A stretch of DNA of 32,000 nt from Candidatus Saccharimonadota bacterium (GTDB lineage Bacteria > Patescibacteriota > Patescibacteriia > 2-12-FULL-60-25), in the NCBI GenBank assembly GCA_963718585.1, contig OY970357.1:90001-122000 (forward strand), read 5' to 3'. Shown here one piece after another: positions 2,743 to 29,827 of the stretch. Numbering within the stretch: position 1 is the first letter of the stretch; each line of letters begins with the position of its first letter. Made by a program: the position numbers and the translations under genes. The notes under the pieces were generated by a model, which was given only the letters and a program-made list of their open reading frames with translations, was not told the origin of the DNA and did not search any database.

Positions 2743-3498
2743 TCAGTGATCCGTATTGCGGATATGGGCGAAGAAGATGACGGCCCAGCGATCCTCCGCG
2801 GTCCCGTTCGTGGGGTCCACGACGTCGTGGACCAGGGCGGGAATGAGTCCGCGCGTGAGACGCTCCAGTTTTTGCCCTGCGAAGAGCAATGCTTCGTCCG
2901 GGACGGAACGGAATGATTCACGTGTGTCGCCGAGGCGGAGCGCCGGACGGCTTTCCGCGATCTGGAGGGTCAGACACGCACGGTCCGTATGGGCGCGCGC
3001 GATGTGAATTCCACGGTCGTAGCGTAGGATCCGGAGGACGTGGAGATCACCGGCGTCGCGGATACGTCGGACGAGGTCATGGCCGGGGAGCGCACCATCG
3101 AAGGCGTCGGCGAACGTGAGCGCCTGCTCAAGGCAGATCGCGTGGAGACGCGTGCAGACGGTGAGCAGATCCTCATGGGCCGAGGTGTGGACACTGTAGT
3201 CGGCAAGATGCGAGCGCAGGCTTGATCGATAGTGGAAGAGCCACTTGTCGTCTTTGTCTTCTCCTCCGCTACTGGTCTTGCGGATCAAGCCATCGTCCGG
3301 CTCATCATCCGGTTCGCCATCGCGGCTGATCTCGAGAGTCCATCGATCACGATCGGGATCCTCGATGAGTCGGCGAATGCCGGTGACGGCTTCGCGCGCA
3401 AGGCTCGAACTGACAAGCGGGACGTTGGTGCGCCCGCGGCGGATGAACTCGGCCGCTTGGGGGCCGAGATCGCCTTCTTCTGACGGGATGCAGAACAT
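2743..3498 (-). CDS. 2OG-Fe(II) oxygenase superfamily protein (isopenicillin-N-synthase-like)
   Basis: HxD...H facial triad candidates (AHTDRACLTLQ and ALVHDVV) with an RWAVIFFAH C-terminal strand. I chose the MFCIPSEEG ATG (3498) as the start because GGAGG lies 7 nt upstream. Confidence 0.6.
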   Translation of the reverse strand: MFCIPSEEGDLGPQAAEFIRRGRTNVPLVSSSLAREAVTGIRRLIEDPDRDRWTLEISRDGEPDDEPDDGLIRKTSSGGEDKDDKWLFHYRSSLRSHLADYSVHTSAHEDLLTVCTRLHAICLEQALTFADAFDGALPGHDLVRRIRDAGDLHVLRILRYDRGIHIARAHTDRACLTLQIAESRPALRLGDTRESFRSVPDEALLFAGQKLERLTRGLIPALVHDVVDPTNGTAEDRWAVIFFAHIRNTDH

Positions 3499-3637: not shown

Positions 3638-3738
3638 TCGAGCGAAACGAGGTTGCGGAGCGTAGCGGAGCAAAACGCAGGCGTCGCGCAGACCCAAGTG
3701 AAGCCGCATCAGCGGATGAACGGGTGGTCAACGCGACC
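3638..3738 (+). repeat. tRNA-leader element, copy A (upstream of tRNA-Leu)
   Basis: Shares the exact blocks GTCGCGCAGACCCAAGTGA and GAACGGGTGGTCAACGCGAC with copy B (28462-28562). An internal hairpin is present, and the element ends 11 nt before the tRNA 5' end. Confidence 0.8.
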
Positions 3739-3748
3739 AGCCGAGTAC

Positions 3749-3817
<69 letters not shown>

Positions 3818-3835
<18 letters not shown>

Positions 3836-3914
3836 CATCAAAAAACCCCGACAGGGGTTTTTTGATGTGGAGAGACGAGAACGGGAAAGGGTGAAAACGG
3901 AAGTTTTCACATGC
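3818..3914 (+). repeat. 97-nt direct repeat, copy 1 (last 18 nt of tRNA-Leu + terminator + start of trailer core)
   Basis: Aligns ungapped with 3979-4075 with 4 mismatched positions. The period is 161 nt. Confidence 0.9.
3836..3867. terminator. Terminator hairpin directly abutting the tRNA-Leu CCA
   Basis: Perfect 14-bp stem CATCAAAAAACCCC-GACA-GGGGTTTTTTGATG. A/T runs inside the stem would let it work in both orientations. Confidence 0.7.
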
Positions 3915-3978
3915 GGAGGAAGGTCTGCGGAAACCCGAAGGTTTCCGCAAAGGCGCGCGAATGCGCGTCCGGTGAGAT

Positions 3979-4075
3979 GTCTCTCCCCGCCCACCACATC
4001 AAAAAACCCCGACAGGGGTTTTTGATTGTGGAGAGACGGGAACGGGAAAGGGTGAAAACGGAAGTTTTCACATGC
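3979..4075 (+). repeat. 97-nt direct repeat, copy 2 (orphan tRNA-Leu 3' fragment + terminator + trailer core)
   Basis: GTCTCTCCCCGCCCACCA (3979-3996) is identical to the tRNA-Leu 3' end. A near-identical terminator and the GGAGAGACGGGAACGGGAAAGGGTGAAAACGGAAGTTTTCAC segment follow. Confidence 0.9.
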
Positions 4076-4081
4076 CAAAAT

Positions 4082-4528
4082 TTACACGACCAACGTCGCC
4101 ACGAAAGCGATGATGAGATAGGTGAACAGGTTGTAGAAGCTGTCAGAGAAGAATTTCTTCCAAGCGAGCCCTCTTTCATAGTTGCCCCAGAGGATATTCT
4201 GACCGATCATCGGGACCGTAAAAGCGATCCAGATGGAGAGAACATAGAAATAGACCGCGTTGGCCGGTCCGCCGCTTTGAATGGTATAGCTTGTGACAAA
4301 CCCGATGAAAAGGGATGTAAGAAGTGAGAACAGCAGCTGAGCTGAATAGCTTTTCCACATCTTCGGTTTCATTTCCGCCATCCGTTTCTTCCTCTCTTCA
4401 TTTGAAAGTTTATCAAAACCAACAGATCGTATGTGCCATTTTCCCATGGGAGTAGATCCGGAATACCAAAGCGTTCCGGTCACGGCACTGATGAGCGCGC
4501 CTAAGATGCCAACGAGAATGATCAACAT
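4082..4528 (-). CDS. DUF1761-family small membrane protein
   Basis: 148 aa with four hydrophobic segments. The N-terminal pattern (GxLWYS...GKW) is typical of DUF1761. The gene is visibly lower in GC than its neighbours. Confidence 0.55.
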   Translation of the reverse strand: MLIILVGILGALISAVTGTLWYSGSTPMGKWHIRSVGFDKLSNEERKKRMAEMKPKMWKSYSAQLLFSLLTSLFIGFVTSYTIQSGGPANAVYFYVLSIWIAFTVPMIGQNILWGNYERGLAWKKFFSDSFYNLFTYLIIAFVATLVV

Positions 4529-7684: not shown

Positions 7685-10570
7685 ATGTCTGCATCCAACG
7701 TCATTTCCATCAAAGGGGCGCGGGCCCATAACTTGAAGAACGTTTCGATCGACCTGCCGAAGGACAAGATGATCGTCGTCACAGGTCTTTCCGGGTCGGG
7801 AAAGTCGTCGCTCGCCTTCGATACGATCCATGCCGAAGGGCAGCGTCGGTACATGGAGAGCCTTTCCTCGTACGCCCGACAGTTCCTCGAGCTGCAGGAC
7901 AAGCCGGATGTCGACGAGATCCTCGGTCTGTCACCGACGATCGCCATCGACCAGAAGTCGTCCTCGCACAATCCGCGATCGACCGTGGGGACGGTGACGG
8001 AGGTGTACGACTTCCTCCGCGTCCTGTATTCGCGCGCCGGTCGCGCACACTGCCCATCATGCGGGAAGCCGGTGAGCGAGCAGACATCGCGGGAGATCGC
8101 GGAGAAGCTCTTGGCATTGGCACAGAAGGCGGATCTGATCCTGCTTGCGCCCATGGTCCGTGAGCAAAAAGGAGAGCACAAGGTCGTACTCCAGGGTGCA
8201 CAGCGTGCTGGATACCGCGAAGTGCGATTCGATGGGATGCTTGTGGATCTCGATGAGATCCTGCGTGTGAAAGTGGACAAGACCCAACCGCATACGGTGG
8301 AGGTCGTCGTGACCAAGATCGAAAAGAAATCGAGCATGGTCCTTGAGAGCCTGCTCGAGATCTTGAAGCAAGCGCTCGACCTCGGGAACGGTCTCGTGCT
8401 CGCGGTCAACGAGGATACGGCAGATGAGACCCTGTTCTCGCAGTCATTGTTTTGCCCGGAGTGCGACATTTCGCTTCCGTCGCTCGAACCGCGCCTGTTC
8501 TCGTTCAACTCACCGCACGGTGCGTGTCCGTCCTGCACCGGTCTCGGGACCAAGCTCGTGCTCGATCCCGAACTCGTCATCCCGAACAAACGGCTGACCA
8601 TCGCGCAGGGGGCGATCAAACCTTGGACGCGCATCGCGGGGAATCAGAATTCGCACATCAAACTGCTCGAAGCCGTCGGCGCAAAGCATGGATTTTCAAT
8701 CAATGAAGAAGTCGGCAAGCTCACGAAAGCGGCGATCACGACCGTCATGGACGGGACCGGCGATGAGGTCTATGACATTGACGGGAAGAAGCTGACCTTC
8801 GGGGGGATCCTCGCCATGCTTGAGGAGAAGTATCGGCAGACGGACTCCGAATACGTGCAAAAGGAGATCGAGACATACATGCGCGTTTTGACCTGTCCGG
8901 AATGCGGCGGCCGGCGTCTGCGGAAGGAGGCCCTGCTCGTCACGATCCTGGACACCGGGATCGCGGATCTCGTCTCCTTGCCGCTTGATGAGTGTTTCAC
9001 CTTTTTCGACAAGCTCGGCAAAGGGCCGAATAGAGTGAAGCCATCCAAGATCGTGAAGACCAAAGCGAATGCAAAGCCGGATCCCATGGGGTTCACGGAA
9101 CGGGAGCGGCTCGTGGTCGATCAGGTCTCGCACGAGATCAAGCGTCGTCTGTCCAACCTTCTCGATGTCGGTCTCGGATACCTCACGCTCGATCGCAGTG
9201 CGATGTCGCTCTCCGGCGGAGAAAGTCAGCGCGTCCGGCTCGCGGTCCAGCTCGGGTCCGAGCTCTCCGGAGTGATCTACATCCTGGACGAGCCGTCGAT
9301 CGGTCTCCATCAGCGCGACAATGACAAATTGATCCTGACCATGAAGCGTTTGCGTGACCTCGGGAACACCGTGGTCGTCGTCGAGCATGACCAAGCCGTG
9401 ATGGAAGCAGCGGATTATGTCGTGGACGTTGGTCCGGGTGCGGGTGAATATGGCGGGGAGATCGTGGCCGAAGGCACGCTCGCAGAAGTGAAGCGCAACA
9501 AAGAATCGCTCACCGGGCAGTATCTCCTCGGCAAGAAGAGTATCGAGACGCCCAAGACGCGTCGCAAGGGCAATGGGAAGAACGTGACGGTGAAGGGCGC
9601 GACTGAATTCAATCTCAAGAACGTGGATTTCAAGGTCCCGCTCGGGAAATTCGTGTGCGTGACCGGCGTTTCCGGATCCGGAAAATCGACGGTCGTGTTG
9701 GATATCCTCGGGCGGTCGCTCTCCGCGCATTTCTACGGCGCCAAAGACCTGCCTGGCGCGCACAAGAGCATCGATGGGATCGACAGCCTCGACAAGGTGG
9801 TGTCCGTGGACCAGTCACCGATCGGCCGGACGCCGCGCTCCAATCCCGCGACGTACACCGGCGTATTCACGGCGATCCGCGATCTCTTCACCGAGATCCC
9901 GGAGGCGAAGATGCGCGGGTATGATGCCGGCAAGTTTTCGTTCAACGTGAAAGGCGGCGGTCGTTGTGAGACCTGCGGCGGGGATGGATATGTCCAGATC
10001 CAGATGCAGTTTCTCCCGGATGTGTATGTCGAGTGCACGGAGTGCCAGGGCAAGCGGTACAACAAAGAGGCGCTTGAGATCCATTATCGCAGCAAGACGA
10101 TCGCCGACATCCTCGACATGACGGTCGAAGAAGCGCGACGTTTCTTCGTCGATCAGCCGTTGATCTATGAAAAGTTGTCCGTTCTGCACGAGGTCGGGCT
10201 TGGATATGTGCGCCTCGGTCAACCGGCGACGACGCTCTCTGGTGGTGAGGCCCAGCGGGTGAAGCTTGCGACCGAGCTCTCACGCCGTGCGACCGGCAAG
10301 ACGCTCTACATCCTGGATGAACCGACGACGGGTCTGCATTTCGACGATATCAAACGATTGCTCCAGGTGTTGCAGGCGCTCGTGGACAAGGGGAACACCG
10401 TCCTCGTGATCGAACACAATCTCGATGTCGTGAAGTCCGCGGATTGGGTGATCGACATGGGCCCCGAGGGGGGTATTCGCGGAGGCGAGATCGTCGCGTT
10501 CGGCACGCCTGAAGAGGTCGCGAAGAGCAAGAAGTCCCTCACGGCGAAATACCTCAAAGCCGTGCTTTGA
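7685..10570 (+). CDS. uvrA: Excinuclease ABC subunit A
   Basis: Two ABC ATPase modules ([14 protein letters not shown] and GVSGSGKST), LSGGE signature motifs and zinc-finger Cys clusters. The start is the [15 protein letters not shown]. Confidence 0.95.
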
Positions 10571-18053: not shown

Positions 18054-18128
18054 TGGTAGGCCCGGCTGGGATCGAACCAGCGACCGGGTGTGTATAAGAC
18101 ACCTGCTCTACCACTGAGCTACGGGCCT
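18054..18128 (-). tRNA. tRNA-Ile with UAU anticodon (AUA decoder), CCA encoded
   Basis: AGGCCCG/TA/GCTC-AGTGGTA-GAGC/A/GGTGT-CTTATAC-ACACC/CGGTC/GCTGG-TTCGATC-CCAGC/CGGGCCT-A-CCA. All stems are Watson-Crick, and loop positions 34-36 read TAT. Confidence 0.85.
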
Positions 18129-26841: not shown

Positions 26842-27390
26842 ATGAAACGTATCCTTTCTCTCATTGCAGGGTTGAGCACCATCGCGCTCATGGGTCTCGG
26901 GTGTAACCCCGTCCAACAGGTACAGCAAAAGGTCGGTGAAGCCGTGACCGAACAAGCGGTCAAACAGGCAACAGGCGGTCAGGTGAAGGCGGATATCAAT
27001 GGCGGGCAGTACACGTTCACGGATAATAAGACCGGTTCGACCTATGTCGCGGGCGACAACGTCAAACTTCCGGATGGTCTCCCGCAGGATGTGATGATCT
27101 ATCCGGGGTCGAAGGCGATGTCCGCGATCGTTTCTAAAGCAGACAACGGGGCATCGGTGACCCTGTCGACGGGCGATGACCAGCAGAAGACCGTCAAGTG
27201 GTATGAGGATCAGATGAAGGGTGCCGGCTTTGATGAGGCAGCGAGCTACACTGCGGGAGATACGGAGATGCGTTCCTACCATAAGGACACCGTCGACGTT
27301 CTCGTCACCGTCGCGGCGGATTCTGACACGGGAGGCAGTACGATCTCCGTCGTGCGGACCGAGACCTCAAGCACAGATTCGAACCAGTAA
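26842..27390 (+). CDS. Lipoprotein-like secreted protein of unknown function
   Basis: Signal sequence MKRILSLIAGLSTIALMGLGC. The mature part has no recognisable motif. Confidence 0.55.
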   Translation: MKRILSLIAGLSTIALMGLGCNPVQQVQQKVGEAVTEQAVKQATGGQVKADINGGQYTFTDNKTGSTYVAGDNVKLPDGLPQDVMIYPGSKAMSAIVSKADNGASVTLSTGDDQQKTVKWYEDQMKGAGFDEAASYTAGDTEMRSYHKDTVDVLVTVAADSDTGGSTISVVRTETSSTDSNQ

Positions 27391-27424
27391 GAAGAAAAGA
27401 TCCCCTCACGGGGATCTTTTCTTC
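27391..27424. terminator. Strong bidirectional terminator hairpin
   Basis: Perfect 15-bp stem GAAGAAAAGATCCCC-TCAC-GGGGATCTTTTCTTC, starting at the nucleotide after the stop codon. Confidence 0.8.
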
Positions 27425-27437
27425 TGGCGGGCGTGCC
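27425..27437 (-). repeat. Orphan tRNA-Ile(GAU) 3'-end-like fragment
   Basis: Minus strand GGCACGCCCGCCA versus the tRNA 3' end GGCACGCCCACCA (12/13 identical). It sits immediately before the terminator hairpin. Confidence 0.55.
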
Positions 27438-27444
27438 CCGCACG

Positions 27445-27511
27445 GCGTATTGCGCTGACCACCCATTCTCTGCCTGCGGCGGATCACTTGGGTCTGTGCG
27501 ACGCCTGCGCT
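27445..27511 (-). repeat. tRNA-leader element, copy D (orphan, not followed by an intact tRNA)
   Basis: The minus strand shares the 25-nt block CAGACCCAAGTGATCCGCCGCAGGC with copy B, plus GAATGGGTGGTC. Confidence 0.8.
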
Positions 27512-27566: not shown

Positions 27567-27578
27567 GTTCGAGTCCAG
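27567..27578 (-). repeat. Inverted copy of the tRNA-Ile(GAU) T-loop/T-stem
   Basis: Plus strand GTTCGAGTCCAG is identical to the tRNA sense sequence although the tRNA is on the minus strand. It is therefore an inverted repeat, located just past the tRNA terminator. Confidence 0.7.
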
Positions 27579-27590
27579 ACACATATGAAA

Positions 27591-27704: not shown

Positions 27705-27808
27705 CTAGACGAGCTTCGCTCCATTCTCCGCCAGAGGCGGATCACTTCGCCTACGCTCGTCGGCTCCGTTTTGCTCGCCTGCGGCTCGTAAGCTCACTTC
27801 GTTCGCAG
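27705..27808 (-). repeat. tRNA-leader element, copy C (upstream of tRNA-Ile GAU)
   Basis: The minus strand has GAGCAAAACGGAG, AAGTGATCCGCC-TCT-GGCGGAGAA, and an outer stem GACGAGC...GCTCGTC that replaces the GTCGCG...CGCGAC stem of copies A and B. Confidence 0.7.
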
Positions 27809-28461: not shown

Positions 28462-28562
28462 CTGCGAGCGTAGCGAGCTTGCGTAGCGAAGCGGAGCAAA
28501 GCGCAGATGTCGCGCAGACCCAAGTGATCCGCCGCAGGCGGAGAACGGGTGGTCAACGCGAC
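28462..28562 (+). repeat. tRNA-leader element, copy B (upstream of tRNA-Phe)
   Basis: See copy A. It has the internal hairpin TCCGCC-GCA-GGCGGA and the outer stem GTCGCG...CGCGAC, and it ends 11 nt before the tRNA 5' end. Confidence 0.8.
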
Positions 28563-28696: not shown

Positions 28697-28709
28697 GCCA
28701 GGATCGAAC
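28697..28709 (+). repeat. Inverted copy of the tRNA-Phe T-loop/T-stem
   Basis: GCCAGGATCGAAC is the exact reverse complement of the tRNA-Phe segment GTTCGATCCTGGC. It lies 12 nt past the terminator. Confidence 0.7.
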
Positions 28710-29267: not shown

Positions 29268-29290
29268 GCCCCGGTATCCCGGGGCTTTTT
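29268..29290 (+). terminator. Intrinsic terminator
   Basis: GCCCCGG-TATC-CCGGGGC followed by TTTTT. Confidence 0.7.
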
Positions 29291-29295
29291 CATAC

Positions 29296-29671
29296 GAAAA
29301 AGCACCGCGAGGGTGCTCTTTCACTTGGAGCGGGTAGCGGGAGATCTCCGTCGTCGCTTAGCTCCTCCCACGAAAACCTTCGGGTTTTCGTGTGCTTTCC
29401 TCAGAATGTGAAACCTTCCGGTTTCACCCTTCCCCGGTTCGACTCCCGCATCTGTCTGTTCAAATGAAAAAGCACCGCGAGGGTGCTCTTTCACTTGGAG
29501 CGGGTAGCGGGAGATCTCCCGCGGCCTTCGGCCTTCTGGGAACCCATCGGTTCCCAGCTCACTCCGTTCGCTCCCTCCGCCATGGGGAACTCCCGTTCCC
29601 CAACGCCCTTCCCGTTCGACTCATCCACCATCAGTCCAAAAACAAATAGACCCGTTGGGTCCACTTGTTTT
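29296..29671 (-). repeat. tRNA-Gly trailer array: two ~170-nt structured units, each ending in an orphan tRNA-Gly 3' fragment plus terminator
   Basis: Perfect 54-nt repeat at 29296-29349 and 29466-29519. The 19-nt TTGGAGCGGGTAGCGGGAG occurs three times (29325, 29495, 29671), the third being the real tRNA 3' end. Inverted T-arm copies lie at 29436-29449 (14/14) and 29613-29626 (partial). Confidence 0.9.
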
Positions 29672-29746
29672 TGGAGCGGGTAGCGGGAGTCGAACCCGCC
29701 TCTCAACCTTGGAAGGGTCGCATAATAGCCGCTATACGATACCCGC
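29672..29746 (-). tRNA. tRNA-Gly (anticodon UCC), CCA encoded
   Basis: GCGGGTA/TC/GTAT-AGCGGCTA-TTAT.../anticodon loop CTTCCAA/T-arm GCGGG-TTCGACT-CCCGC/TACCCGC-T-CCA. It closely resembles the E. coli tRNA-Gly(UCC) layout. Confidence 0.9.
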
Positions 29747-29760
29747 GAAAATGTGGCCGC

Positions 29761-29789
29761 ATCGTAGCGGAATCGGGTTCAGCTGACAA
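29761..29789 (-). promoter_or_regulatory. Promoter TTGTCA-N17-TACGAT for tRNA-Gly
   Basis: Exact 17-nt spacer on the minus strand. The -10 box ends 14 nt before the mature 5' end. Confidence 0.55.
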
Positions 29790-29798
29790 TCCTCCGTC

Positions 29799-29827
29799 TC
29801 GACAAGCGAAGAATCCTTCCTTATGAT
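29799..29827 (+). promoter_or_regulatory. Promoter TCGACA-N17-TATGAT for tRNA-Pro
   Basis: Exact 17-nt spacer. The -10 box ends 14 nt before the mature 5' end. It is divergent from the tRNA-Gly promoter. Confidence 0.55.

Follow-up and report, generated by a model that had tools for sequence, protein, structure and literature searches.

Why does the 3' end of a tRNA-Leu gene appear a second time, a short distance behind the intact gene and together with the hairpin that follows it? The locus lies in a 32,000-nt stretch of the genome of a Candidatus Saccharimonadota bacterium (GenBank assembly GCA_963718585.1, contig OY970357.1 of ~1.08 Mb, positions 90,001 to 122,000), hereafter the window, whose own coordinates are used throughout. 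An earlier note on this DNA had pointed out that such an orphan tRNA fragment is the classic scar of site-specific integration into a tRNA gene. Our analysis leads elsewhere: with moderate confidence, we read the locus as a tandem array of an RtT-type element, structured and linked to a tRNA gene, with 1.6 units at a period of 161 nt; RtT repeats are known from tRNA operons of Escherichia coli. This reading is carried by the anatomy of the repeated module, its recurrence behind a second tRNA gene of the window, the covariation between the arms of its hairpins and the identity of its design with that of RtT.

A structured module behind tRNA-Leu and tRNA-Gly

The repeat search reproduced the duplication as the earlier note had described it, with a 97-nt block at 3818-3914 that recurs at 3979-4075, at a spacing of 161 nt and with 96% ungapped identity (four mismatched positions). 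One of the four mismatches is an A/G change; because the other three arise where the hairpin's T-run is shifted by one base (TTTTTTGATG vs TTTTTGATTG), the copies differ by three events and not by four independent substitutions. A 46-nt part of the block is present twice in the window, which was seen in 0 of 100 shuffles. The repeat starts at the GT of the T-loop, at tRNA position 59, and carries 18 tRNA nucleotides through the CCA; the note had already recognized the last 18 nt of the gene, which ARAGORN places at 3749-3835. The features of this locus are given below, with scores from our covariance model R1 where it matched.

3749-3835, plus strand: tRNA-Leu(CAG) with encoded CCA, the host tRNA of the array (ARAGORN; Rfam tRNA, 51 bits)
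3818-3914, plus strand: repeat copy 1: the 18 nt of tRNA positions 59-76, then hairpin 1, then the opening 46 nt of Leu_m1
3833-3870, either strand: hairpin 1, a perfect 17-bp palindrome, A-run / CCCC GACA GGGG / T-run (-29.7 kcal/mol)
3869-3996, plus strand: complete module Leu_m1, 128 nt (RNA fold; pair counts; R1, 116 bits)
3869-3876, plus strand: closing 5' strand of Leu_m1, GGAGAGAC, complementary to the tRNA T-stem
3877-3882, plus strand: GAGAAC of Leu_m1
3891-3910, plus strand: first hairpin (hp1) of Leu_m1
3911-3925, plus strand: GGAGG linker of Leu_m1
3926-3949, plus strand: second hairpin (hp2) of Leu_m1
3952-3969, plus strand: third hairpin (hp3) of Leu_m1
3974-3978, plus strand: GAGAT of Leu_m1
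3979-3996, plus strand: tRNA-Leu 18-mer of Leu_m1, its first 8 nt predicted to pair with 3869-3876 and its tail CCGCCCACCA to be single-stranded
3979-4075, plus strand: repeat copy 2: the orphan 18-mer, then hairpin 2, then the beginning of a second, truncated module
3994-4031, either strand: hairpin 2, a degraded hairpin 1 with two bulges (-21.4 kcal/mol on the plus strand, -21.1 on the minus strand)
4030-4075, plus strand: truncated module Leu_m2, with the closing 5' strand, GGGAAC and hp1 at 4052-4071 (nhmmer; partial R1 match, 32 bits)

Module Leu_m1 begins 34 nt after tRNA-Leu, and the part of it that falls within repeat copy 1 runs from the closing 5' strand through hp1 and ends with ATGC. 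The 64-nt spacer between the repeat copies, in which the earlier note had rightly seen two hairpins (3926-3949 and 3952-3969), is the remainder of the module after its first 46 nt. The note had taken the unit as tRNA end, terminator and trailer; this is accurate as to content, but the unit is better set as terminator, module and tRNA 18-mer, present 1.6 times. Each unit consists of a hairpin or terminator, a core of ~110 nt that begins with a complement of the 3' strand of the neighbouring tRNA's T-stem, two or three hairpins, GAGAT and an exact tRNA 18-mer. The hairpin itself had been described as a 14-bp terminator, and here the hairpin stands while the length does not: it is a 17-bp palindrome in copy 1 and weakened in copy 2, with another 44 nt of the repeat behind it. 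The T-run after GGGG (T6 in copy 1, T5 in copy 2) is paired with the A-run in the 17-bp stem. Hairpin 1 is presumed to act as a bidirectional intrinsic terminator; a simple terminator scan called neither of the Leu hairpins.

The same organization occurs behind tRNA-Gly, on the opposite strand and near the other end of the window.

29672-29746, minus strand: tRNA-Gly(TCC), the host tRNA of the second array (ARAGORN)
29496-29627, minus strand: module Gly_m1, with the terminal tRNA-Gly 18-mer CTCCCGCTACCCGCTCCA at 29496-29513 (R1, 113 bits)
29326-29450, minus strand: module Gly_m2, with the terminal tRNA-Gly 18-mer at 29326-29343 (R1, 105 bits)
29289-29349 and 29459-29519, minus strand: two 61-nt copies of 18-mer plus hairpin AGCACC..GGTGCT (whole-window repeat search)

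The two 61-nt copies are 97% identical, the spacings relative to the end of the tRNA itself are 170 and 176 nt, and the boundary of the Gly orphans falls at tRNA position 59, as it does for Leu. In Leu_m1, Gly_m1 and Gly_m2 alike, the orphan 18-mer is identical to the host tRNA at 18/18 nt. The stretches between the hairpins of the Gly locus align by nhmmer with the stretch between the two Leu hairpins, and the modules are ~125-130 nt long with one order of parts: a T-arm complement, hp1, a linker with the motif (G/T)GAGG, hp2, hp3, GAGAT and the host 18-mer. The T-arm complement is GGAGAGAC plus GAGAAC at Leu and, in Gly_m2, GCGGGAGTCGAACC, the exact reverse complement of tRNA-Gly positions 52-65. 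The first hairpin takes the forms GTGAAAAC-GGAA-GTTTTCAC, GTGAAACC-GGAA-GGTTTCAC and TGGGGAAC-GGGA-GTTCCCCA, and the second the forms TGCGGAAACC-CGAA-GGTTTCCGCA, CACGAAAACC-CGAA-GGTTTTCGTG and CTGGGAACC-GATG-GGTTCCCAG, while hp3 is variable among modules. In the predicted fold, three hairpins are enclosed by a closing helix, in which the 5' strand pairs with the initial 7-8 nt of the 18-mer, and a tail that ends in CCA stays single-stranded; the helix comprises 8 bp in Leu_m1, 7 bp in Gly_m2 and 4 of 7 in Gly_m1.

Counted over three full modules in an alignment set in register by hand, this fold has 26 pairs. Pairing holds in 96% of the cells, and at 13 pairs both partners have changed; none of 500 shuffles reached the observed values, and in slid controls 29-53% were paired. 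The compensatory changes affect 5 of the 8 pairs of hp1 and 5 of the 10 pairs of hp2, and neither hairpin has a broken pair. These diverged cores lie beside 18-mer and hairpin segments that are near-identical within each array (Gly, 100% over 54 nt; Leu, 96% over 97 nt). Over 1.35 Mb of sequence, including the E. coli loci, model R1 matched only the three and a half modules of the window itself.

Two other readings of the module were tried and rejected. An open reading frame (ORF) at 3911-4327 and a 31-codon frame in Gly_m1 might have been coding, but Gly_m2 has ATT for the ATG, and the substitutions between modules are compensating pairs across hairpin arms. A degenerate second tRNA is found by neither ARAGORN nor Rfam, and the core is common to the Leu and Gly loci. 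A simple scan of the Leu and Gly/Pro loci found no promoter-like site belonging to any module; the sigma-70-like sites that it found lie upstream of the tRNA leader near the Leu locus (one) and between the tRNAs at the Gly/Pro locus (two). At the latter, tRNA-Gly and tRNA-Pro are divergent with a gap of 95 nt, and the two sites form back-to-back sigma-70-like promoters within 29761-29827 (TTGTCA-17-TACGAT on the minus strand and TCGACA-17-TATGAT on the plus strand).

A design in common with the RtT elements of Escherichia coli

RtT repeats were described at tyrT in 1978 and rtT RNA in 1991; at E. coli tyrT, a 178-bp unit is present in 3.14 repeats, each starting with the end of tRNA-Tyr. At the tyrT-tyrV locus of MG1655 (rttR) we found four matches to the Rfam RtT family RF00391, of 133-137 bits, with a repeat period of 178 nt, in which the units end GAGTA/ATCCTTCCCCCACCACCA (ATCC..CCA), with a tRNA copy of 19 nt. 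The 5' GGGGAAGGAU of the RF00391 consensus pairs with AUCCUUCCCC, and its tail CACCACCA is unpaired. An RtT also stands behind each tRNA-Lys of the lysT operon and ends GAGTC/ATCCTGCACGACCCACCA, which is positions 59-76 (18 nt). At lysQ the tRNA is followed by a terminator and then by an RtT, which opens with the inverted T-arm GATTCGAACCTGC; behind it come the 18-mer and the same terminator once more. In this 3' flank (L086, 2136-2345), the tRNA end and terminator are duplicated round one RtT (54 nt, 100% identical, period 156), which makes it the E. coli twin of the tRNA-Leu locus.

Judged by sequence and predicted fold, the window modules have all the architectural features of RtT. Both kinds lie directly behind, or between, tRNA genes on the same strand, both measure ~125-130 nt, and both end in a copy of the last 18-19 nt of the adjacent tRNA (positions 58/59-76, with CCA), a copy that is host-specific (Tyr and Lys in E. 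coli, Leu and Gly here). A closing helix with part of the T-stem, a multi-hairpin interior and a single-stranded NCCA tail, predicted in the window modules, are common to both, as is GAG(A/U)N immediately before the tRNA copy. The tandem periods are 161-176 nt here and 156-178 nt in E. coli, and the arrays of both end in a partial unit. By eye, and without statistics, both kinds also have GAGAA behind the closing strand (Tyr RtT and Leu_m1), GAG.U ahead of the 18-mer and a hairpin that contains CCCGAAGG. In contrast, the internal hairpins of RtT differ from those of the window modules, and most E. coli copies are without a terminator between tRNA and RtT, whereas strong hairpins bracket every unit here. 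The known hosts are E. coli and Pasteurellaceae (Gammaproteobacteria), and the window belongs to a Patescibacteria (Uhrbacteria-like) genome.

Several observations weigh against the assignment to the RtT type. RF00391 scores none of the window modules, not even with the search space cut down to the module itself and E<=10 allowed (gathering threshold, 45 bits), and model R1 does not score E. coli RtT. Because the profile tests are negative in both directions, we file the modules as RtT-like in design and not as members of RF00391, and because neither model scores the other side, homology to RtT is unproven and the likeness may be convergent. The closing helix of Gly_m1 is poor, its 5' strand being degenerate, Gly_m2 lacks hp3, the pair counts come from a small set registered by hand, and palindrome correction at the DNA level could also keep hairpins perfect. 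For comparison, we used 80 loci from species-representative genomes, found by way of the RNase J encoded at 90-2288 (best match, 80% identical). Not one of the 79 tRNAs in these related loci repeats even a 12-mer of its last 20 nt within 1.5 kb, and this absence from the tRNA loci of related species leaves the element without phylogenetic depth. Finally, co-transcription with the tRNA would need read-through, since a 17-bp hairpin and T-run separate the tRNA from the module.

RtT RNAs have been described as being freed from tRNA operon transcripts during processing, and an effect on the stringent response has been reported (PMC4986893; bioRxiv 10.1101/2024.07.17.603846). The transcription, the processing and the recombination dynamics of the array, like any cellular role, are inferred. 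By analogy with the rtT RNA of E. coli, transcripts that run past hairpin 1 would include the module as part of the tRNA precursor, and the closing helix with its ...NCCA tail would imitate the T-stem and acceptor end of a tRNA. The enzymes that trim tRNA 3' ends might then also set the 3' end of the module at the orphan CCA, freeing a small stable RNA. Unequal recombination or gene conversion between the 18-mer/terminator repeats could grow, shrink and homogenize the array, which would explain the 96-100% identity of the 18-mer and hairpin segments beside the diverged cores.

What the window offers is not a new principle but an RtT-type array that recurs, within 32 kb of a Patescibacteria genome, behind two or more tRNAs. 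It would extend a forty-year-old element to a distant phylum and sharpen which features matter, as the comparison separates the common features of RtT from the incidental ones. The blueprint combines a host-matched closing strand, GAGNU, a tRNA-end copy of 18 nt and a repeat period of ~160-180 nt; its presence with unrelated sequence in a minimal-genome lineage argues for selection of the blueprint itself or for a mechanism that generates it. In island calling, orphan 3' ends of tRNAs are routinely taken as attachment (att) scars, and an RtT-like class yields false positives there; such a class also breaks short-read assemblies beside tRNA genes.

That RtT-type elements are not peculiar to enterobacteria but form a phylum-spanning class of structured modules, attached to tRNA genes and always ending in positions 59-76, is a bolder proposal, which we consider doubtful. 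If it were true, the fixed 58/59 boundary across Tyr, Lys, Leu and Gly hosts of two phyla, together with the host-matched 5' complement, would reflect a specific mechanism, and the window would be the first non-proteobacterial example for defining the invariant features. One candidate mechanism would be acquisition of the host 18-mer when a module colonizes a new tRNA gene, either by T-loop-specific recombination or by a copying of the tRNA 3' end that is blocked at A58. A second candidate would be an obligatory mimicry of the tRNA end, for processing or for binding a factor that recognizes tRNA ends.

Alternative origins of the repeat

Each of the rival explanations fails on at least one tested point. 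It is unlikely that the repeats are an integration scar, in which the two repeats with the 18-mers would be the attL and attR of an integrative element that targeted the T-loop of tRNA-Leu and has since lost nearly all its DNA, or of a miniature, non-autonomous one moved in trans by an integrase encoded elsewhere. Like the att sites of tRNA-integrating islands and prophages, the orphan is a 3' tRNA fragment that runs from the T-loop to the CCA and forms a direct repeat with the intact gene; at tRNA-Gly, three successive att-like copies look like the product of tandem accretion, and the hairpin is flanked by inverted repeats, namely the closing 5' strand and the 18-mer, an arrangement that could in principle be a recombinase core site. 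However, there is no island. Only 64 nt lie between the repeats, a length that the earlier note had already doubted would suit integration, and the repeat reaches 79 nt beyond the tRNA. A Pfam scan of the 26 larger ORFs of the window found no integrase, recombinase, transposase or reverse transcriptase. The block and spacer were not found in IMG/VR or among GenBank phages, where scans with the trailer hairpin, the junction and the spacer hairpin (IMG/VR) and blastn (phages) gave nothing beyond tRNA-Leu genes. The supposed island is instead a structured core found at two different tRNA loci, each with the 18-mer of its own tRNA, and because this core is common to both, integration would need two decays to the same remnant. 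In the tRNA operons of E. coli, no islands accompany the equivalent design. With no recombinase in the scanned ORFs, nothing foreign between the repeats and a spacer that proves to be a conserved structured core, the reading as an integration scar, which the earlier note had raised, finds no support.

A recent and neutral local duplication, by slippage or unequal crossing-over, in which the hairpins would be old terminators and trailer structure, is improbable as well. It would be in keeping with the 96% identity of the Leu copies and the truncation of the second unit, and E. coli arrays also end in partial units. It nevertheless leaves unexplained the homologous core with compensatory hairpin changes behind tRNA-Gly, a core that starts with the complement and ends with a copy of the T-stem and acceptor end of its own tRNA, and a boundary at 58/59 in four tRNAs of two phyla.

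Quite improbable, too, is a DNA-level palindromic repeat without RNA function, comparable to miniature inverted-repeat transposable elements (MITEs) or repetitive extragenic palindromic (REP) sequences, that settles by tRNA terminators and whose hairpins are kept by a mobilizing DNA transaction or by template-switch correction of quasi-palindromes. The hairpins are equally good on both strands, the pairs of hp1 and hp2 are all Watson-Crick with no G-U pair to mark the strand, and tRNA-Phe and tRNA-Ile(GAT), though lacking a full module, have inverted T-arm copies just beyond their terminators. Against this, a search of the window and of 1.3 Mb from relatives found no copy that was not at a tRNA 3' flank, the ends vary with the host tRNA and are not fixed terminal inverted repeats, and no transposase was found among the 26 scanned ORFs. 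The G-T pair in hp3 of Leu_m1, moreover, works only on the sense strand.

Two further comparisons can be made with known systems. The 18 nt of the orphans is the length of a retroviral primer-binding site, and a retro-element reading was kept only as a lead, no reverse transcriptase having been found among the Pfam-scanned window ORFs; since each orphan matches the adjacent tRNA, a local origin of the orphans is indicated against this reading. Small RNAs of the 3' external transcribed spacer (ETS), such as 3'ETS-leuZ of E. coli, come from the trailer of a tRNA precursor, ahead of the terminator, and act as base-pairing sponges; they are not known to carry a copy of the tRNA 3' end or to be tandemly repeated, whereas the window modules carry such a copy and are repeated in tandem.

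An assembly artefact, whether by collapse, by expansion or by the joining of two strain variants in tandem, is highly improbable: although the source is a metagenome assembly and the copies differ at a homopolymer, a typical error site, the spacer has a unique and structured sequence of its own, an equivalent organization is found twice more at tRNA-Gly, and an independent k-mer assembly of run ERR11571143 branches exactly at both outer boundaries of the repeat. The exact flanking proteins are recorded only in the Logan contigs of this run. The left contig (L084) ends at window position 3847 with ...GTCTCTCCCCGCCCACCACATCAAAAAACC, 30 nt into repeat copy 1, and the right contig (L001) begins at 4046 with GAAAGGGTGAAAACGGAAGTTTTCACATGC, the last 30 nt of repeat copy 2; 30 nt is k-1 for a graph of k=31, the value that we assume for the Logan assembler. 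As the contigs stop 30 nt inside both outer edges, the reads must hold two left and two right contexts for the block, and the branching of the graph at both edges therefore implies two copies, as a one-copy locus would not branch there. The duplication that the earlier note had reported is thus real and not an assembly error. At the tRNA-Gly array, one contig of the Logan assembly breaks inside tRNA-Pro.

Relatives, neighbouring genes and other tRNA-linked features

The source organism is related to Candidatus Uhrbacteria, and the relatives found by RNase J are mostly labelled Candidatus Uhrbacteria or Patescibacteria. Three of them (L003, L007 and L011) and many others are titled 'uncultured Gammaproteobacteria bacterium', with RNase J 65-75% identical to the Uhrbacteria-like protein of the window, which looks like mislabelled taxonomy. 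The nearest relatives are distant, with identities of <=80% for RNase J, <=78% for DUF1761 and <=50% for the 2-oxoglutarate (2OG) oxygenase, and no close relative was found in the protein collection by searches with flanking proteins or in the Joint Genome Institute (JGI) metagenome scan. Two metagenome matches to the junction of tRNA end and terminator (L082 and L083) were rejected: both rest on a 25-mer shared by chance, in a coding region that is unrelated and contains no tRNA. In ~40 relatives, tRNA-Leu lies close to RNase J, and nearly all of these have a single A-run/hairpin/T-run after the CCA; a second copy of the tRNA end was seen at 0 of the ~40 tRNA-Leu loci, all from distant relatives. 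Neither nhmmer nor R1 found a module in the 80 related loci (1.3 Mb). In one relative (L017), 22 nt from the 5' end of the tRNA-Leu at 9577-9663 are repeated exactly at 9678-9699, 15 nt upstream of the gene, which is a partial tRNA duplication of another sort.

Two genes flank the tRNA-Leu locus, both on the minus strand.

2743-3498, minus strand: 2OG-Fe(II) oxygenase gene, flanking tRNA-Leu
4082-4528, minus strand: DUF1761 gene, convergent and bounding the Leu array (Pfam PF08570; homologues span 99% of the ORF)

The convergent stop codon at 4082 is placed as the earlier note had it, and Leu_m2 ends 6 nt short of it. On the minus strand, hairpin 2 lies ~50 nt past this stop codon and is followed by six T, so that it is a plausible candidate terminator of the DUF1761 gene; as a part of the mechanism proposed above, the last hairpin copy of the array would probably double as the terminator of the convergent genes for DUF1761 and a solute-binding protein (SBP). 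The deposited gene call for DUF1761 (P0116) has 99 aa, against ~148 aa for the ORF and its homologues, and is probably truncated at its start. Elsewhere in the window, Pfam matched RNase J, UvrA, a solute-binding protein, a DsbA-like protein, pseudouridine synthase, RNase HII, H+-pyrophosphatase, MgtC, a glycosyltransferase and a few others, while nine ORFs had no match.

Two tRNAs that have no full module are also followed by an inverted copy of their own T-arm (the reverse complement of positions 53-65), namely tRNA-Ile(GAT), at 27567-27579 on the minus strand (11/13 nt matching), and tRNA-Phe, at 28697-28709 on the plus strand (13/13). These copies sit 40-48 nt after the CCA, just beyond the terminator. 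Including Leu and Gly, 4 of the 6 window tRNAs have this feature, compared with one weak case among the 79 tRNAs of relatives.

Another element of ~100 nt lies directly upstream of tRNA-Leu and tRNA-Phe and, in part, upstream of tRNA-Ile(GAT), with 82-91% identity between copies (3639-3737 and 28465-28562 on the plus strand; 27456-27511 and 27721-27747 on the minus strand), one of which is downstream of tRNA-Ile(GAT). It contains a hairpin TCCGCC-GCA-GGCGGA and GC-rich GCGA/GCGG repeats, and could represent a leader or promoter region common to these tRNAs, or else a further tRNA-linked repeat. Behind tRNA-Ile(GAT), a diverged orphan of the tRNA 3' end at 27425-27443 on the minus strand (GTGCGGGGCACGCCCGCCA vs GTCCAGGCACGCCCACCA) comes after the leader-like element and before a strong hairpin (27390-27425); this region looks like a third, older and different tRNA-linked module. 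ARAGORN also placed a tRNA-Ile with the anticodon TAT (UAU) at 18054-18128 on the minus strand; a UAU tRNA-Ile is uncommon in bacteria, in which AUA is normally read by a lysidine-modified CAU tRNA.

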